Below are positions 1,884 to 39,710 of a stretch of DNA of 39,710 bases, in pieces. Made by a program: the position numbers and the translations under genes. How positions within the stretch are numbered: position 1 is the stretch's first letter; each line of letters starts with the position of its first letter. The notes below the pieces were generated by a model. It saw only the letters and a list, made by a program, of their open reading frames with translations, did not search any database and was not told the origin of the DNA. This stretch comes from a virus. Lineage: Duplodnaviria; Heunggongvirae; Uroviricota; Caudoviricetes. The DNA is taken from the IMG/VR virus record IMGVR_UViG_2778261152_000009, positions 1-39,710 of that record; one strand, written 5' to 3'.

Positions 1884-2789
1884 CTATATTTCCAGACACC
1901 TGTTATCACTTAACCCATTACTGGCTTGCTGCCGTAGATATTCCCGTGGCGAGCGATAACCCAGTGCACTATGCGGATGCCATTCGTTATAATGCTCGAA
2001 CGCCTCTGCAAGGTTCTTTGCTGCCGTTAACCCGTCTGGTTTGGGCATGACACTGATGTAGTCACGCTTTATCGTTTTCACGAAGCTCTCTGCTATGCCG
2101 TTACTCTCCGGACTCCGCACCGCCGTGCTCTTCGGTTCAAGCCCCAACATCCGGGCAAACTGCCGTGTTTCATTAGCCCGGTAGCATGAACCATTATCCG
2201 TCAGCCACTCTACTGGAGACGCCGGAAGCTCGTTGCCGAAGCGGCGTTCCACCGCTCCCAGCATGACGTCCTGTACTGTTTCACTGTTGAAGCCGCCCGT
2301 AGTGACCGCCCAGTGCAGTGCCTCACGGTCACAGCAGTCCAGCGCGAACGTGACTCGCAGTTTTTCTCCGTTATCACAGCGGAACTCGAACCCGTCAGAG
2401 CACCATCGCTGATTACTTTCTTTCACAGCCACTCTGCCTGTATGTGCCCGTTTCGATGGCGGTACAGCAGGTTTTCGCTCAAGCAACAGCGCATTCTGGC
2501 GCATGATCCGGTAAACACGTTTGGCATTGATCGCAGGCATACCATCAAGTTCTGCCTGTCTGCGAAGCAGCGCCCATACCCGACGATAACCATACGTGGG
2601 CAGCTCTCCGATAACATGGTGTATACGGAGAAGCACATCCGTATCATCAGTGTGACGACTGCGGCGGCCATCCATCCAGTCATCGGTTCGTCTGAGAATG
2701 ACGTGCAACTGCGCACGCGACACCCGGAGACAACGGCTGACTAAGCTTACTCCCCATCCCCGGGCAATAAGGGCGCGTGCGCTATCCAC
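1884..2789 (-). CDS. insD: IS2 transposase OrfB (InsD, DDE catalytic domain)
   Basis: 301-aa ORF recognised as IS2 InsD ([34 protein letters not shown]...); overlaps the upstream orfA in the -1 frame as in IS3-family frameshift-dependent transposases. Confidence 0.9.
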
Positions 2790-3112
2790 TTTTTTGCCCG
2801 TCCATATTCAACGGCTTCTTTGAGGAGTTCATTTTCCATCGTTTTCTTGCCGAGCAGGCGCTGGAGTTCTTTAATCTGCTTCATGGCGGCAGCAAGTTCA
2901 GAGGCAGGAACAACCTGTTCTCCGGCGGCGACAGCAGTAAGACTTCCTTCCTGGTATTGCTTACGCCAGAGAAATAACTGGCTGGCTGCTACACCATGTT
3001 GCCGGGCAACGAGGGAGACCGTCATCCCCGGTTCAAAGCTCTGCTGAACAATTGCGATCTTTTCCTGTGTGGTACGCCGTCTGCGTTTCTCCGGCCCTAA
3101 GACATCAATCAT
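2747..3112 (-). CDS. insC: IS2 transposase OrfA (InsC, HTH DNA-binding)
   Basis: ORF track gives 2747..3157; the recognised InsC begins at the internal Met [40 protein letters not shown] (121 aa, start 3112). Confidence 0.85.
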
Positions 3113-3203
3113 CTGTTCTCCAATGACTAGTCTAAAAACTAGTATTAAGACTATCACTTAAATAAGTGATATTGGTTGTCTGGAGATTCAGGGGGCCAGT
3201 CTA

Positions 3204-18941: not shown

Positions 18942-19016
18942 GGGTCAGTCGTATAAAGGTCATTACGGAAGGCTGTTAACCTTCTTATCGTGGTTCGAGT
19001 CCACGCTGTCCCGCCA
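18942..19016 (+). tRNA. tRNA-like gene, anticodon GUU (Asn-like), imperfect cloverleaf
   Basis: Manual fold: perfect T-arm CGTGG-TTCGAGT-CCACG, perfect anticodon arm GAAGG-CTGTTAA-CCTTC with U33/A37, D-loop with GG, encoded CCA; acceptor and D stems each have one U-U mismatch. Confidence 0.4.
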
Positions 19017-19021
19017 AATAT

Positions 19022-19097
19022 GTTGGTTTAGCTCCAATGGTAGAGCAGTCGCCTTGTAAGCGAATGGGTAGCGGTTCAAGTCCGTTAACCAGCACCA
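19022..19097 (+). tRNA. tRNA, anticodon UGU (Thr)
   Basis: Manual fold: acceptor GTTGGTT/AACCAGC (one G-U), U8, D-arm GCTC-CAATGGTA-GAGC, anticodon loop CTTGTAA, T-arm AGCGG-TTCAAGT-CCGTT, discriminator A, encoded CCA; 5 nt after the first tRNA-like gene. Confidence 0.5.
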
Positions 19098-35592: not shown

Positions 35593-35853
35593 TTAGCTGC
35601 TGTCTTTTTTATATAGCTCTTTGAGCGTATCAAAGACAATTTTCTTAACCATATCGGATTGTTGTTCTGCCATACGCTCTGCATCGTCAATGTAAACTGA
35701 TGCAGAGTTTTGTTTATCCAGTGATTCTTCAATCGCTGCAATTATCTCTGAGTTCAGAGACCTGTTATTCATCTTCGCACGCTGTTTAATTTTCGCGTGG
35801 AGTTCATGCGGAAGTCTCAAGTGAAACTGCGCCTCGTCGTATTTGCTGTACAT
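35593..35853 (-). CDS. mnt: Mnt-like ribbon-helix-helix repressor
   Basis: ORF 35593..35886; internal Met at 35853 gives 86 aa; FHLRLPHELHAKIKQRAKMNNRSLNSEIIAAIEESL and DDAERMAEQQSDMVKKIVFDTLKELYKK parallel P22 Mnt (FNFRMPMEVREKLKFRAEANGRSMNSELLQIVQDAL...NDAERLADEQSELVKKMVFDTLKDLYKK). Confidence 0.75.
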   Translation of the reverse strand: MYSKYDEAQFHLRLPHELHAKIKQRAKMNNRSLNSEIIAAIEESLDKQNSASVYIDDAERMAEQQSDMVKKIVFDTLKELYKKDSS

Positions 35854-35974
35854 CCTTGATGCCTCACCAGGTGGGTGGAATGGCATCGTAACTTACTGGA
35901 TAAATACTCAATAGTACCATTTCGGTATGCAATCACATCATGGTTGCATCATATCATTCGTCTGGAGCAATGAA

Positions 35975-38155
35975 ATGTCAGATATCACCGCAAATATTGT
36001 GGTAAGCATGCCTTCGCAACTCTTCACTATGGCTCGTTCTTTTAAAGCCGTAGCCAATGGCAAAATTTATATCGGTAAAATTGACACTGACCCGGTAAAT
36101 CCTGAAAACCAGATTCAGGTTTATGTGGAGAACGAAGACGGTTCTCACATTCCTGTTGCACAGCCAATCATCATTAACGTTGCCGGATATCCTGTATATA
36201 ACGGACAGATTGCCAAATTCGTTACCGTGCAAGGTCATTCGATGGCTGTTTATGATGCATATGGCACGCAGCAGTTCTATTTCCCTAATGTGCTGAAGTA
36301 TGACCCTGACCAGTTAAGACAGAATCTGCTTGATCGTCCTCTTACTATCAGGAATGGTAAGCTTGCGCTAGCTGATTTCATTAATGTCCGTGATTATGGG
36401 ATTATGGGTGACGGCACTGACGAGAGTTCCTTATGGGCAGCAATGATTGCTGCGCTTCCTTCCGGTTGCACAACACTATATGTTCCTGCTGGTAATTATG
36501 TATGCAATACTCCTATCGCCCTGGTGTGGGCAAAACTACCCACGTTAATTGTTGACTCTGAGGCAATATTAACACCAGCCATATCCTTTTCTGCATTTTT
36601 AAACGTTCAGTACCGCCGAAGAGACGAAACTAAATTCGGTGCGGGAATTGTTTCTGCGGGAACAACTGCGAATATGGGTGGCTTTAAAGTTGGTGGAGGC
36701 GCTCTTATGGATTCTGGTGATGGAATGTTCTTATCATCAGATGGGCACGCTAACTGGATGCGCATTCAAACTAGCAAAAATTATAACCCATCAGAAGTTG
36801 CTATTTATGGCTCTGCGGCACAAGGTCAACTTGTACATCAGTCACAGAACGTACTGATACGTGAAAGTGGCTCGCTTTTCGACATTACTAATTGGGCAGT
36901 AGGTGATGCAATTTATGCTTTTGACAGGGCCCTGGTAATTACTGCATTAACCTCAGCAGACCAGATTTCTGTTACAGAAATTGGAGGGGGAAACCTTACT
37001 GCTGCCATAGGTGCTCATTCTAGATACCATTACGTATATACCACAGGTGGGGGTATATGCGACGTGGTAAATGGGGTATGTACAAGAAAATCAGGAGATC
37101 CATTCTTTTTCTTCGGATATGGAAATGGTACGTATAAATTCTGGCTTAACGGAACACTTCGTACCGTCGTCAGTATATCTAATAAAGGCAATACGTGCAC
37201 TTTGCAGGATACCTCTATAAATGCCACAAACGCGCAATACAAAATGAGGGATGATATTAACTCACAAATAAGTACATTGCGTGTGCAGAAAACTACAGGC
37301 GTGGATGAGGAGAATTTAACTATCTCTGCTAAAGCAGTTGGTGAATACGAAATAAGGGCAGGAATTTCCGGGGATGGTAAATATTATCCTATCCGTTTTT
37401 ATAACGGTGACGATGGTGCCTATAAACCGCATAAAGTAATGGAGATTACACCAAGCGGCCTTGTTGGGATTATGAATGATGGGTCATCTCCATCTGCACT
37501 TTTATATGCTAGTAATAAAACCAATGCACCAATGTCAGATGGCACAATGTTTAAGCTAGGTTCTTTCAGGACGCAATACACAGACGGTGCTAGAGAGCTA
37601 CAGTTTGGATGTTTGAGCAACTCTGGCTCTAACGGCGGCTTTATTCAGGGGAGTGATGCATCCGGCAATAACTACCAAGTAGTTATTAATCCTCGCGGTG
37701 GTAACGTTGGTGTTAATACAGATAATCCAGTATTTCCCCTAGACATTAATGGCGCTTGCGGGCCTCACATAAGCAACACATATACCAACGGTGACTCAAC
37801 TCGTTTATGGAAACTTGTGTATTCCGCAGGTGGGGTTTTAACAACATCTGATGAACGCAAGAAAACCAAGCTTAAGAAATTTACAGAGAATGAAATCGCT
37901 GCTGCACAAGAGCTTGCACTATGCTCTGGTACATTCATGTGGCTTAAAGATTGTGAGGAAATGGGCGATGACTCACCTATTAATATCGGGTACATAGTTC
38001 AAGATGTAATAAAAGTAATGGAAAAACATGGGCTTAATTACAGAAAATACAAAATGATAGACCATGATGAAGTGAATGATGCATACGCACTTAATTATGA
38101 CCAGATAATCGTTTTTGTTATGGCTGGTATTGTTGCTAGATTAGCATCAGGCTAA
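35975..38155 (+). CDS. Tailspike: P22-like head-binding N-terminus, distinct receptor-binding body, C-terminal chaperone-like domain
   Basis: ORF 35927..38155; Met at 35975 gives [58 protein letters not shown]... paralleling the P22 tailspike N-terminus; body unrelated to P22 as recalled; C-terminus has [11 protein letters not shown] resembling the S-D-x-R-x-K autoproteolysis motif of intramolecular chaperone domains. Confidence 0.8.
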
Positions 38156-38193: not shown

Positions 38194-38227
38194 GGCAAGA
38201 GGTAGAAACCACCTCTTGCCATTTATT
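38194..38227. terminator. Bidirectional terminator between convergent tailspike and membrane-protein genes
   Basis: Perfect 10-bp stem GGCAAGAGGT / ACCTCTTGCC with 7-nt loop, followed by ATTTATT on the plus strand and preceded by an A/T-rich run on the minus strand. Confidence 0.6.
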
Positions 38228-39710
38228 AATCTCCTAGCTTAATGAAATAAATTCCATTCATAACTGTTATTGAGTCCGCGTCAGGCCATGACGGAATGAG
38301 TTTTAATTTTTCTTTTTCGTCGTTACTTGCAATGTGTAAATTTAAAGAAAACCCACTTATCATTGCTGCATATTTTGTAATTCTACGAGGATCTCCTCCT
38401 GAAAAACTAAACATTGACTCACCAAAGGTGTCAGAATTATTTTTTTTCCAAGGGTTGTATGTGGGATACGCACCGATGAAACTTACGACATCCGTTGACG
38501 GATTAAAGTTACCATACTTACTTTGTAGTTGGGACAATATCCTGTTAGTTATGTTGGAATCTATCTCTCTTGCCATTGCATCAGAGTAAAAGAGCATATT
38601 TACTGTTGATGCACTATAGTAAACTACAATTGTGCAAATTAGGGCTGACAGTGTGCTTTTTACTTTGCTGCATGTTTTTAATTTTTCTATAGCGAAAGCA
38701 AATAGAAAAGCGAATGTTGCAGATAACCCAAGCAAAACTCTGGGTCCCTGTATGCCCCCGAGTCCGATAACCACAAAGAAGGGGCTGATTGCTAATGTTA
38801 ATATTGATATTAATTTTATAATATTTTTATCATGATTGATTACCTGACTATAGGAAAGAAAAACAACGGGAACCACCATGAACGGAATAATGCTAGCCCC
38901 AAAATAATAATCACCTGTGAGTGTTGATATCACAACCTCACTCACCCTTTGAAGCGTTTCGTATACAGGTTCTTTTAGCCAGTGAAAGGTGTCTTTAAGA
39001 TATGTGGGTGTGGTTACGTTGAATATAGCATGACTTAAAAAAACTATTATATAATAAATGGATGTAGCAAGTATTATTGCAAACGAAAATATTGAAAAAC
39101 ATTTAATGATTCTCTTTTTGCATTCTTCATTACATTTTGCAATGAATTGCATTAAAAATACAACGACAGGGAAAGAGATTAGTGATTGATATATTCCTAG
39201 TGAAAAGGTAAGCACTAAAACCCCAATAAATAGAAGTTTTATATTTACTTTGTCTTTTCCAAAGATTGAAGAATAAAGTATCAGACCTGATATACATGCG
39301 AGAAGTTGACCTAATGCAACGGTATCGGACTGCTGAGCAAACTCAGCTTGATAAGCAAATTGCGGAAATGATACAAAAATAATAGCAAACATTATCCTTG
39401 TACTAAGGAGCTTAAACGTGTTTACAGCTAATAAGAAAGCAGTTATAACATTAAGCGCTAACATTACGAGAGTTGTAAACCCCGGCGTGTAGGCGTTTAC
39501 CCTAAATATATAGTCGATTATTGCTGAACCCCACCGCCCTAGAGAAATCCACCATAAAATACCTTCATTAGGCCATGAAAAAAAAGCGTACTCTGTGTCT
39601 ATTGATATAGAAAAGTTGGTTAGGTTTTGAAAATAAACGAGTAAAGACGTTATAAATGCTATAACCATTATCTTAATGCTATTGGCGTTTATTTCTTTTT
39701 TTAAATTCAT
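38226..39710 (-). CDS. Polytopic membrane protein, candidate O-antigen-modifying GtrC-like (serotype conversion)
   Basis: 494 aa with many hydrophobic helices over ~380 residues then a hydrophilic C-terminal domain; markedly AT-rich compared with the rest of the window; convergent with the tailspike at the prophage edge; start codon is at the last bases of the window, so any upstream partners are not visible. Confidence 0.45.
   Translation of the reverse strand: MNLKKEINANSIKIMVIAFITSLLVYFQNLTNFSISIDTEYAFFSWPNEGILWWISLGRWGSAIIDYIFRVNAYTPGFTTLVMLALNVITAFLLAVNTFKLLSTRIMFAIIFVSFPQFAYQAEFAQQSDTVALGQLLACISGLILYSSIFGKDKVNIKLLFIGVLVLTFSLGIYQSLISFPVVVFLMQFIAKCNEECKKRIIKCFSIFSFAIILATSIYYIIVFLSHAIFNVTTPTYLKDTFHWLKEPVYETLQRVSEVVISTLTGDYYFGASIIPFMVVPVVFLSYSQVINHDKNIIKLISILTLAISPFFVVIGLGGIQGPRVLLGLSATFAFLFAFAIEKLKTCSKVKSTLSALICTIVVYYSASTVNMLFYSDAMAREIDSNITNRILSQLQSKYGNFNPSTDVVSFIGAYPTYNPWKKNNSDTFGESMFSFSGGDPRRITKYAAMISGFSLNLHIASNDEKEKLKLIPSWPDADSITVMNGIYFIKLGD

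Follow-up and report, generated by a model that had tools for sequence, protein, structure and literature searches.

The window analysed here, a stretch of 39,710 nt taken at its full length, ends with a tailspike gene followed, on the opposite strand, by an AT-rich gene coding for a membrane protein and referred to below as gtrC. The following features were delineated in this region:

35975-38155, plus strand: tailspike gene, 726 aa (Pfam Head_binding, Pect-lyase-like and Peptidase_S74)
38194-38220, no strand assigned: GC-rich hairpin in the spacer between the tailspike gene and gtrC (terminator scan; RNA fold)
38226-39710, minus strand: gtrC CDS, 494 codons plus a TAA stop at 38226-38228 (Pfam PF14264, GtrII-family GT-C glucosyltransferase)
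38229-38588, minus strand: C-terminal hydrophilic domain, residues 375-494, predicted to be periplasmic (hydropathy; confident mixed alpha/beta model)
38709-39626, minus strand: transmembrane GT-C core, residues 29-334 (Glucos_trans_II match)
39591-39602, minus strand: codons Ile37-Asp38-Thr39-Glu40, acidic motif opening the first periplasmic loop, predicted catalytic or donor-binding site (alignment)

The original prediction, made from the window's sequence, had described the last gene as a strikingly AT-rich ORF at positions 38226-39710 with its start codon at the window end, and this observation is confirmed. The ORF is real and codes for 494 residues, with an ATG that makes up the last three bases of the window. 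In identical loci found elsewhere, an AAGGA Shine-Dalgarno sequence is present 6 nt 5' of this ATG, and an in-frame TAA lies one codon 5' of it, so that the ATG is the true start and the gtrC CDS is complete in the window; the ribosome-binding site, the promoter and the upstream genes lie outside. The base-composition comparison gave a G+C content of 0.345 for gtrC versus 0.482 for the remainder of the window, which is the lowest value among all windows of 1485 bp (z of about -4), and the GC3 of the gene is 0.30. The low-GC island starts at about position 37450, within the 3' end of the tailspike gene. The gene is intact in all 15 copies compared, which differ at eight sites (four synonymous and four non-synonymous), too few for inferring selection.

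With regard to its family, the gtrC product has a single significant Pfam match, PF14264 (Glucos_trans_II; Glucosyl transferase GtrII), which scores 73 bits against a cutoff of 30 and spans positions 3-316 of the 317-position profile. It also matches PHROG 4829, annotated as 'GtrC-like' O-antigen conversion (E 2e-11), and the NCBIfam scan returned nothing above cutoff. A megablast search of the region against 50,697 phage records found no match, and tblastn against the phage records retrieved SfII GtrII, weak Enterococcus phage matches and nothing else, SfII GtrII being the only characterised relative found in the 50,697 records. The two proteins share 25% identity by BLASTP over 487 residues (99% of the length, E 1e-27). 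Since a word-indexed protein search recovered only 16 homologues, even with a 45-sequence profile, the alignment used throughout (A1, 45 homologues) was built from an HMMER search that exhaustively covered 1.84 billion cluster representatives and yielded 659 homologues, the nearest distinct one being 37% identical. Used as a profile, A1 aligns with SfII GtrII along the entire length (probability 100%, E 1e-74) and with P22 GtrC over the membrane domain only (residues 3-406, probability 96.4%); no relationship to SfV GtrV was detectable with it. By scan, SfII GtrII and P22 GtrC are members of PF14264, and SfV GtrV falls outside this family.

An identical protein is annotated at NCBI as 'MULTISPECIES glucosyltransferase domain-containing protein' (E. 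coli). The exact sequence is found on 97 contigs, the corresponding 90%-identity cluster has 83 member sequences, and the allele is rare, being carried by 4 of 5426 complete E. coli genomes. A literature search with the accessions of the allele found no publication on this gtrC. The gene is already generically annotated in RefSeq, and it adds a member of uncharacterised specificity to the well-known gtrC kind; a specificity cannot be transferred to it, because it shares no more than about 25% identity with any characterised GtrC.

The N-terminus of the protein is Lys-rich, and a Kyte-Doolittle scan delineated some 11 hydrophobic segments, the first loop having 45 residues and the hydrophilic C-terminal domain 120, in agreement with the secondary structure of the AlphaFold model. 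The original prediction of about 10 helices plus a hydrophilic C-terminal domain was essentially right, apart from the helix count, which is closer to 11 in the topology prediction. The predicted arrangement is the polytopic inner-membrane topology of the Gtr(type) kind, with 9-11 helices, a cytoplasmic N-terminus, a large loop 1 and a periplasmic C-terminal region. [quoted passage not shown] The C-terminal domain encoded here is homologous to the C-terminal tail of GtrII, sharing conserved DTFG-S and P-WP motifs, and could not be aligned with the C-terminus of P22 GtrC. As judged from sequence, it is the probable acceptor-recognition domain of the enzyme.

In the PDB, no related chain was found by sequence, and structure prediction was therefore needed. 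AlphaFold2 run on alignment A1 produced a confident model (mean pLDDT 92.6, pTM 0.92), the strong structural matches of which are all GT-C enzymes. The model has a predicted GT-C membrane core, the first external loop of which contains an acidic residue, and this fold supports the assignment as a putative periplasm-facing glycosyltransferase dependent on a lipid-linked sugar. Among the BFVD viral models, Foldseek found no useful match, and the matches included no Gtr(type) protein.

The model also bears on two other readings of a polytopic protein in this position. Foldseek additionally lists MFS and other transporters (probability 0.1-0.5, TM-scores below 0.2), as might be expected if the gene coded for an unrelated membrane transporter carried as AT-rich cargo. 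We give this possibility hardly any credence: it is excluded by the GT-C fold, and homology to an unrelated transporter family, which the original prediction had regarded as incompatible with its proposal, was not seen, the profile search giving Glucos_trans_II. A phage O-antigen polymerase or ligase (Wzy- or WaaL-like), changing the linkage between repeat units, would likewise span the membrane several times and have a large periplasmic region, and wzy-type genes occur in some temperate phages (PMC4815439). Such an enzyme is very improbable here and was rejected, since no Wzy-type Pfam family figures among the matches and the strong structural matches are all GT-C.

In the 45 homologues of A1, Asp38 is invariant and Glu40 is conserved in at least 90%, the start of loop 1 having the consensus LSIDEE; residues R59, P116, F124, Y174, R324 and P476 are invariant as well. 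Glu40, Phe414 and Lys478 are reported to be critical residues of GtrII (PMC8509367, citing Lehane et al. 2005). Glu40 of the gtrC product aligns with Glu40 of SfII GtrII, and GtrII Phe414 aligns with Met433, adjacent to Phe434. GtrII Lys478 has no counterpart, as the last residue of the present protein pairs with GtrII residue 477. Among the three critical residues, only Glu40 is thus clearly conserved.

The 39,710 nt of the window harbour neither gtrA nor gtrB, and the original prediction had expected such partners to lie outside. In related loci, where gtrC is 99.7-100% identical at the DNA level, gtr-like genes, whose absence would have counted against the original prediction, do flank it: gtrA and gtrB are present directly upstream, i.e., at the point where the window stops, on 10 out of 10 contigs and in 4 out of 4 complete genomes (14 of 14 loci). 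From these near-identical relatives, both genes presumably lie just past the window end in the source genome. In the relatives, gtrA codes for a 120-aa protein (PF04138) and gtrB for a 305-aa protein (PF00535), the stop codon of the latter overlapping the gtrC start as ATGA. Their GtrB is 87% identical, and their GtrA 78-89% identical, to the P22, SfV and SfII proteins, and conserved gtrAB genes followed by a divergent third gene form the classic pattern of these operons (PMC2629481, PMC7685785). The G+C contents also correspond, with 0.32-0.33 for gtr(type) and 0.43 for gtrAB of known phages, and here 0.345 for gtrC and 0.41-0.435 for the relatives' gtrAB.

This operon structure is relevant to the choice among the O-antigen modification enzymes that had been proposed for the gene, namely, a GtrC-type glucosyltransferase, an acetylase or a polymerase. 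Acetylases of the Sf6 Oac or Salmonella BTP1 'GtrC' type fill the same genomic slot in some prophages. The position downstream of the tailspike and near att, the AT-richness and the polytopic topology are features shared with phage acetylases, in line with the argument of the original prediction. The translational coupling of gtrB and gtrC in relatives argues against an O-antigen O-acetyltransferase, and this candidate, to which we attach very little probability, was rejected because the Pfam, NCBIfam and PHROG scans contain no acyltransferase-3 match and the fold matches GT-C. Out of the options first put forward, the GtrC-type enzyme is thus the one that stands, by PF14264, the PHROG match, the homology to SfII GtrII and the GT-C fold, and the acetylase and the polymerase do not.

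The region upstream of gtrA in the relatives contains a conserved block, AGTATCGATCGATTGAGACTTGGATGATAGA, and a single GATC in the conserved promoter-proximal region; in one locus, a second GATC is found 106 bp further upstream. In the gtr operon of P22, four GATC sites, arranged as two pairs within OxyR half-sites, drive phase variation (PMC2909390). A search for a P22-like Dam/OxyR switch in this region of the relatives did not find these two GATC pairs, and no phase switch is evident from the sequence.

The closest full-length relative of the window is a P22-like prophage inserted at thrW in E. coli strain 19451123, with the order proA, thrW (attL), int, ..., tailspike, [IS1], gtrC, gtrB, gtrA and a 47-bp thrW repeat (attR). 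The boundaries of the window itself coincide exactly with the stop codon of the integrase gene on one side and with the gtrC start codon on the other. Such ends look like gene-boundary trimming of a prophage call, which would leave about 1.6 kb (gtrB, gtrA and attR) outside. The location at the prophage edge proposed initially is therefore correct in that gtrC is near the edge, but the gene lies about 1.6 kb inside attR in this relative rather than at the edge itself. The gene is thus carried by a prophage near att/int, and its G+C content is below those of gtrAB and of the backbone (0.48).

The block formed by the tailspike gene and gtrC was found at three chromosomal sites: thrW, the lambda attachment site and argW/intS. 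The copy at the lambda site lies between ybhB/bioA and ybhC, with the TTAGTATAAAAAAGC core visible, and the copy at argW/intS is that of strain 74-2, in which gtrA and gtrB are annotated yfdG and yfdH and the tailspike gene is interrupted. The prophage is decayed in three of the four complete genomes, where int, the tailspike gene, gtrCBA and a few genes of early or regulatory function are left. The O-antigen loci of the carriers are O32 in 74-2, O4 in ES9 and, in 19451123, an untyped rml-containing locus present in 2 of the 5426 genomes. No O-serogroup common to 74-2, ES9 and 19451123 was found, and, the carriers having different O-antigen loci, no single acceptor is evident.

In the tailspike, the N-terminus is of the P22 head-binding type, the receptor-binding body is divergent, and an S74 chaperone domain forms the C-terminal part. 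Its N-terminus is up to 93% identical to those of P22-like phages, and its body is at most about 25% identical to anything in sequenced phages. In P22-like phages, the tailspike is an O-antigen-binding protein. As first described, the gene is convergent with gtrC, the two being separated by a spacer of 70 bp. The hairpin in this spacer has a stem of 10-12 bp and, according to the terminator scan, a T-rich tail on the plus strand; its folding energy is -22.7 kcal/mol (z -3.7), and it is probably a transcription terminator shared by both genes.

Of the 5426 complete E. coli genomes, the 4 that carry gtrC are also precisely those in which the tailspike body is present. Loci in which the adjoining genes share only some 88% identity, or are unrelated, have the 3751-bp block of tailspike gene and gtrC at 99.4-99.6% identity, and gtrAB reach 99.9% identity between two such prophage contexts. 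These data establish that the tailspike gene and gtrCBA are genetically linked and have been co-transferred as one cassette between prophage backbones. The original prediction of a receptor-modification and receptor-recognition pair fits the data: linkage is borne out by the occurrence in the same four genomes and by the joint movement, and the modification introduced by GtrC may in turn match the receptor of the linked tailspike. Co-evolution of gtrC and the tailspike was also sought in distant homologues, but none was usable, one being a Kosakonia copy in a chromosomal gtrABC operon without a phage and another standing alone without gtrAB.

Taken as a whole, we consider it highly probable that the gene is gtrC, the third, serotype-specific gene of a gtrABC operon for O-antigen glucosylation, carried by a P22-like E. 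coli prophage. What has been documented above is the family and fold of the protein, its conserved motif, the prophage setting of the gene and, from relatives, its operon. From sequence comparison, we infer that the transferred sugar is glucose, that the acceptor is the O-antigen, that the C-terminal domain has the role proposed for it and that the outcome includes superinfection exclusion.

An alternative would be a Gtr-type GT-C enzyme that acts on an acceptor other than the O-antigen, e.g., enterobacterial common antigen, capsule, LPS core or a periplasmic protein, or one that is idle in most carriers. The unrelated O-antigen loci of the carriers (O32, O4 and untyped), the location of three of the four complete-genome copies in decayed prophages and the solitary distant homologue without gtrAB are consistent with it, as is the fact that the eight variable sites do not clearly signal purifying selection. 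Against this stand the intactness of 15 out of 15 gtrC copies and of gtrAB, and the tight linkage of gtrC to the tailspike, an O-antigen binder in P22-like phages. Furthermore, every characterised phage gtrABC cassette modifies the O-antigen (PMC7685785, PMC2629481), and we regard a different acceptor, or an idle enzyme, as unlikely.

For O-antigen glucosylation by gtrABC, a three-step Gtr model has been described in the literature (PMC7685785, PMC11194591, PMC2629481). [quoted passage not shown] The 11-helix GT-C protein GtrC, with Asp38 and Glu40 of loop 1, would then transfer the glucose in the periplasm onto one defined sugar of the O-antigen repeat, the choice of this acceptor being expected to depend on its C-terminal periplasmic domain. 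The O-antigen of the lysogen, and with it the serotype, would thereby be changed, which should decrease adsorption or cleavage by O-antigen-specific phages, the prophage's own tailspike included.

In Shigella, Salmonella and E. coli, phage gtrABC operons are the classic mechanism by which the O-antigen serotype is converted and lysogens are protected against superinfection, and the current understanding of Gtr systems is left unchanged by this allele. Somewhat speculatively, we can propose that the GtrC allele and the divergent tailspike together constitute a new E. coli serotype-conversion system, in which glucose would be added as a branch to an O-antigen that is rare or untyped, and a matching O-antigen-specific depolymerase would go with it. 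The cassette would be passed on whole from one P22-like prophage to another (at thrW, att-lambda and argW), and selection would keep it after prophage decay. If so, a single 5-kb module could serve to define both a new O-factor and a new tailspike specificity. The gene and its linked tailspike also offer a pair with which to study how a modified receptor escapes recognition, the practical value of which is modest.

Among known systems, the closest is SfII GtrII, the serotype 2 glucosyltransferase of Shigella flexneri. Both proteins belong to PF14264 and can be aligned throughout, C-terminal periplasmic domain included, and both possess the IDxE motif with Glu40. Each is encoded third in its operon, behind gtrA and gtrB, with a stop/start codon overlap (here in relatives), and both genes have a low G+C content (0.32 in SfII and 0.345 here). 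They differ in that the identity is only 25%, GtrII Phe414 aligns with Met433 and Lys478 lacks a counterpart. Furthermore, SfII is not a P22-like podovirus, and its cassette directly follows int, without an adjacent tailspike gene. As the O-antigen of the SfII host is different, the same acceptor and linkage cannot be assumed.

With regard to gene order, the locus resembles that of Salmonella phage P22, in which the tailspike gene 9 is convergent with gtrC (ORF485), followed by gtrB, gtrA, att and int. P22 GtrC is a PF14264 member too, and P22 GtrB is 87% identical to that of the relatives. However, the homology to P22 GtrC is limited to the membrane domain, the C-terminal domains not being alignable, and the conserved region upstream of the relatives' gtrA has one GATC, compared with four such sites in the P22 operon (PMC2909390).

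In E. coli, comparable gtr cassettes include CPS-53 (yfdG-yfdH-yfdI at argW) and the gtr prophages of O17/O44/O73/O106, and the present cassette is itself found at argW/intS in strain 74-2. For the E. coli cassettes, the addition of a glucose side branch by genes outside the O-antigen cluster has been proposed (PMC7685785). Unlike in these cassettes, the third-gene allele described here is rare (4/5426), its nearest distinct relative being 37% identical. Finally, the GT-C enzymes that use polyprenyl-phosphate sugars, i.e., ArnT, PglB/STT3, PMTs, ALG mannosyltransferases and mycobacterial Aft/Emb, are more remote: identity to them is 6-13%, the C-terminal domain of the gtrC product is much smaller, and their acceptors belong to another class.

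The cassette formed by the tailspike gene, the convergent glucosyltransferase gene gtrC, and then gtrB and gtrA, is found, more than 99.4% identical, at three chromosomal attachment sites, namely, thrW, att-lambda, and argW (loci L001, L002, and L018 of ES9, 74-2, and E89, respectively, and contigs L003-L012). Three of the four complete genomes carry it inside heavily decayed prophages, and its survival there suggests that the cassette is retained once the phage has been lost. In most of the draft-genome copies, the cassette adjoins TTAGTATAAAAAAGC, the core of the lambda attachment site, situated between ybhB/bioA and ybhC (L003 6340-6400); thus, att-lambda is a further integration site of a P22-like prophage carrying it.

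With regard to the window itself, its left end is exactly the stop codon of the minus-strand integrase gene (1-1161), and its right end exactly the ATG of gtrC (39708-39710). Since both termini coincide with codons delimiting genes, they look like the product of a prophage prediction trimmed to gene boundaries. The closest relative (locus L013 of E. coli strain 19451123) has its true attL, in thrW, immediately to the left of int, and its attR at L013 2807-2853, about 1.6 kb to the right of the position equivalent to the window end.

Strain 19451123 is the sole complete genome holding a full-length copy of the prophage, and an IS1 element inserted there (L013 5955-6652) interrupts the 70-bp spacer that separates the tailspike gene from gtrC. 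This host of the intact relative harbours a rare O-antigen gene cluster (L017 20442-38015), found in 2 of 5426 complete genomes, to which the annotation pipeline assigned no type. The cluster comprises rmlBDAC, a flippase, a DUF6337 protein, and glycosyltransferases, with a gne-like epimerase upstream; the chain-length regulator gene wzzB of the strain is disrupted by IS26.

Four further features lie within the window:
1884-3157, minus strand, IS3-family insertion sequence, with the int/xis region on one side and the early genes on the other
18942-19097, plus strand, adjoining phage-borne pair of tRNA-Asn(GTT) and tRNA-Thr(TGT) genes, mid-prophage
35593-35886, minus strand, Arc/Mnt-type ribbon-helix-helix repressor gene, directly upstream of the tailspike gene and divergent from it
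35975-38155, plus strand, tailspike gene

The IS3-family element, which looks IS2-like, carries two overlapping ORFs, one with an HTH_Tnp_1 domain and the other with an rve integrase core; no transposase is annotated in the equivalent int-proximal region of the strain 19451123 relative.

Residues 1-113 of the tailspike form a head-binding domain of the P22 type, and residues 625-687, towards the C-terminus, an intramolecular chaperone domain (Peptidase_S74). The body that binds the receptor gives only a weak pectate-lyase-like signal and shares no more than about 25% identity with proteins of sequenced phages. Between the repressor and tailspike genes, the window lacks an antirepressor gene, whereas the relative in strain 19451123 possesses one. 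The placing of the repressor gene, upstream of the tailspike gene and divergent from it, is the same as in the immI region of P22.
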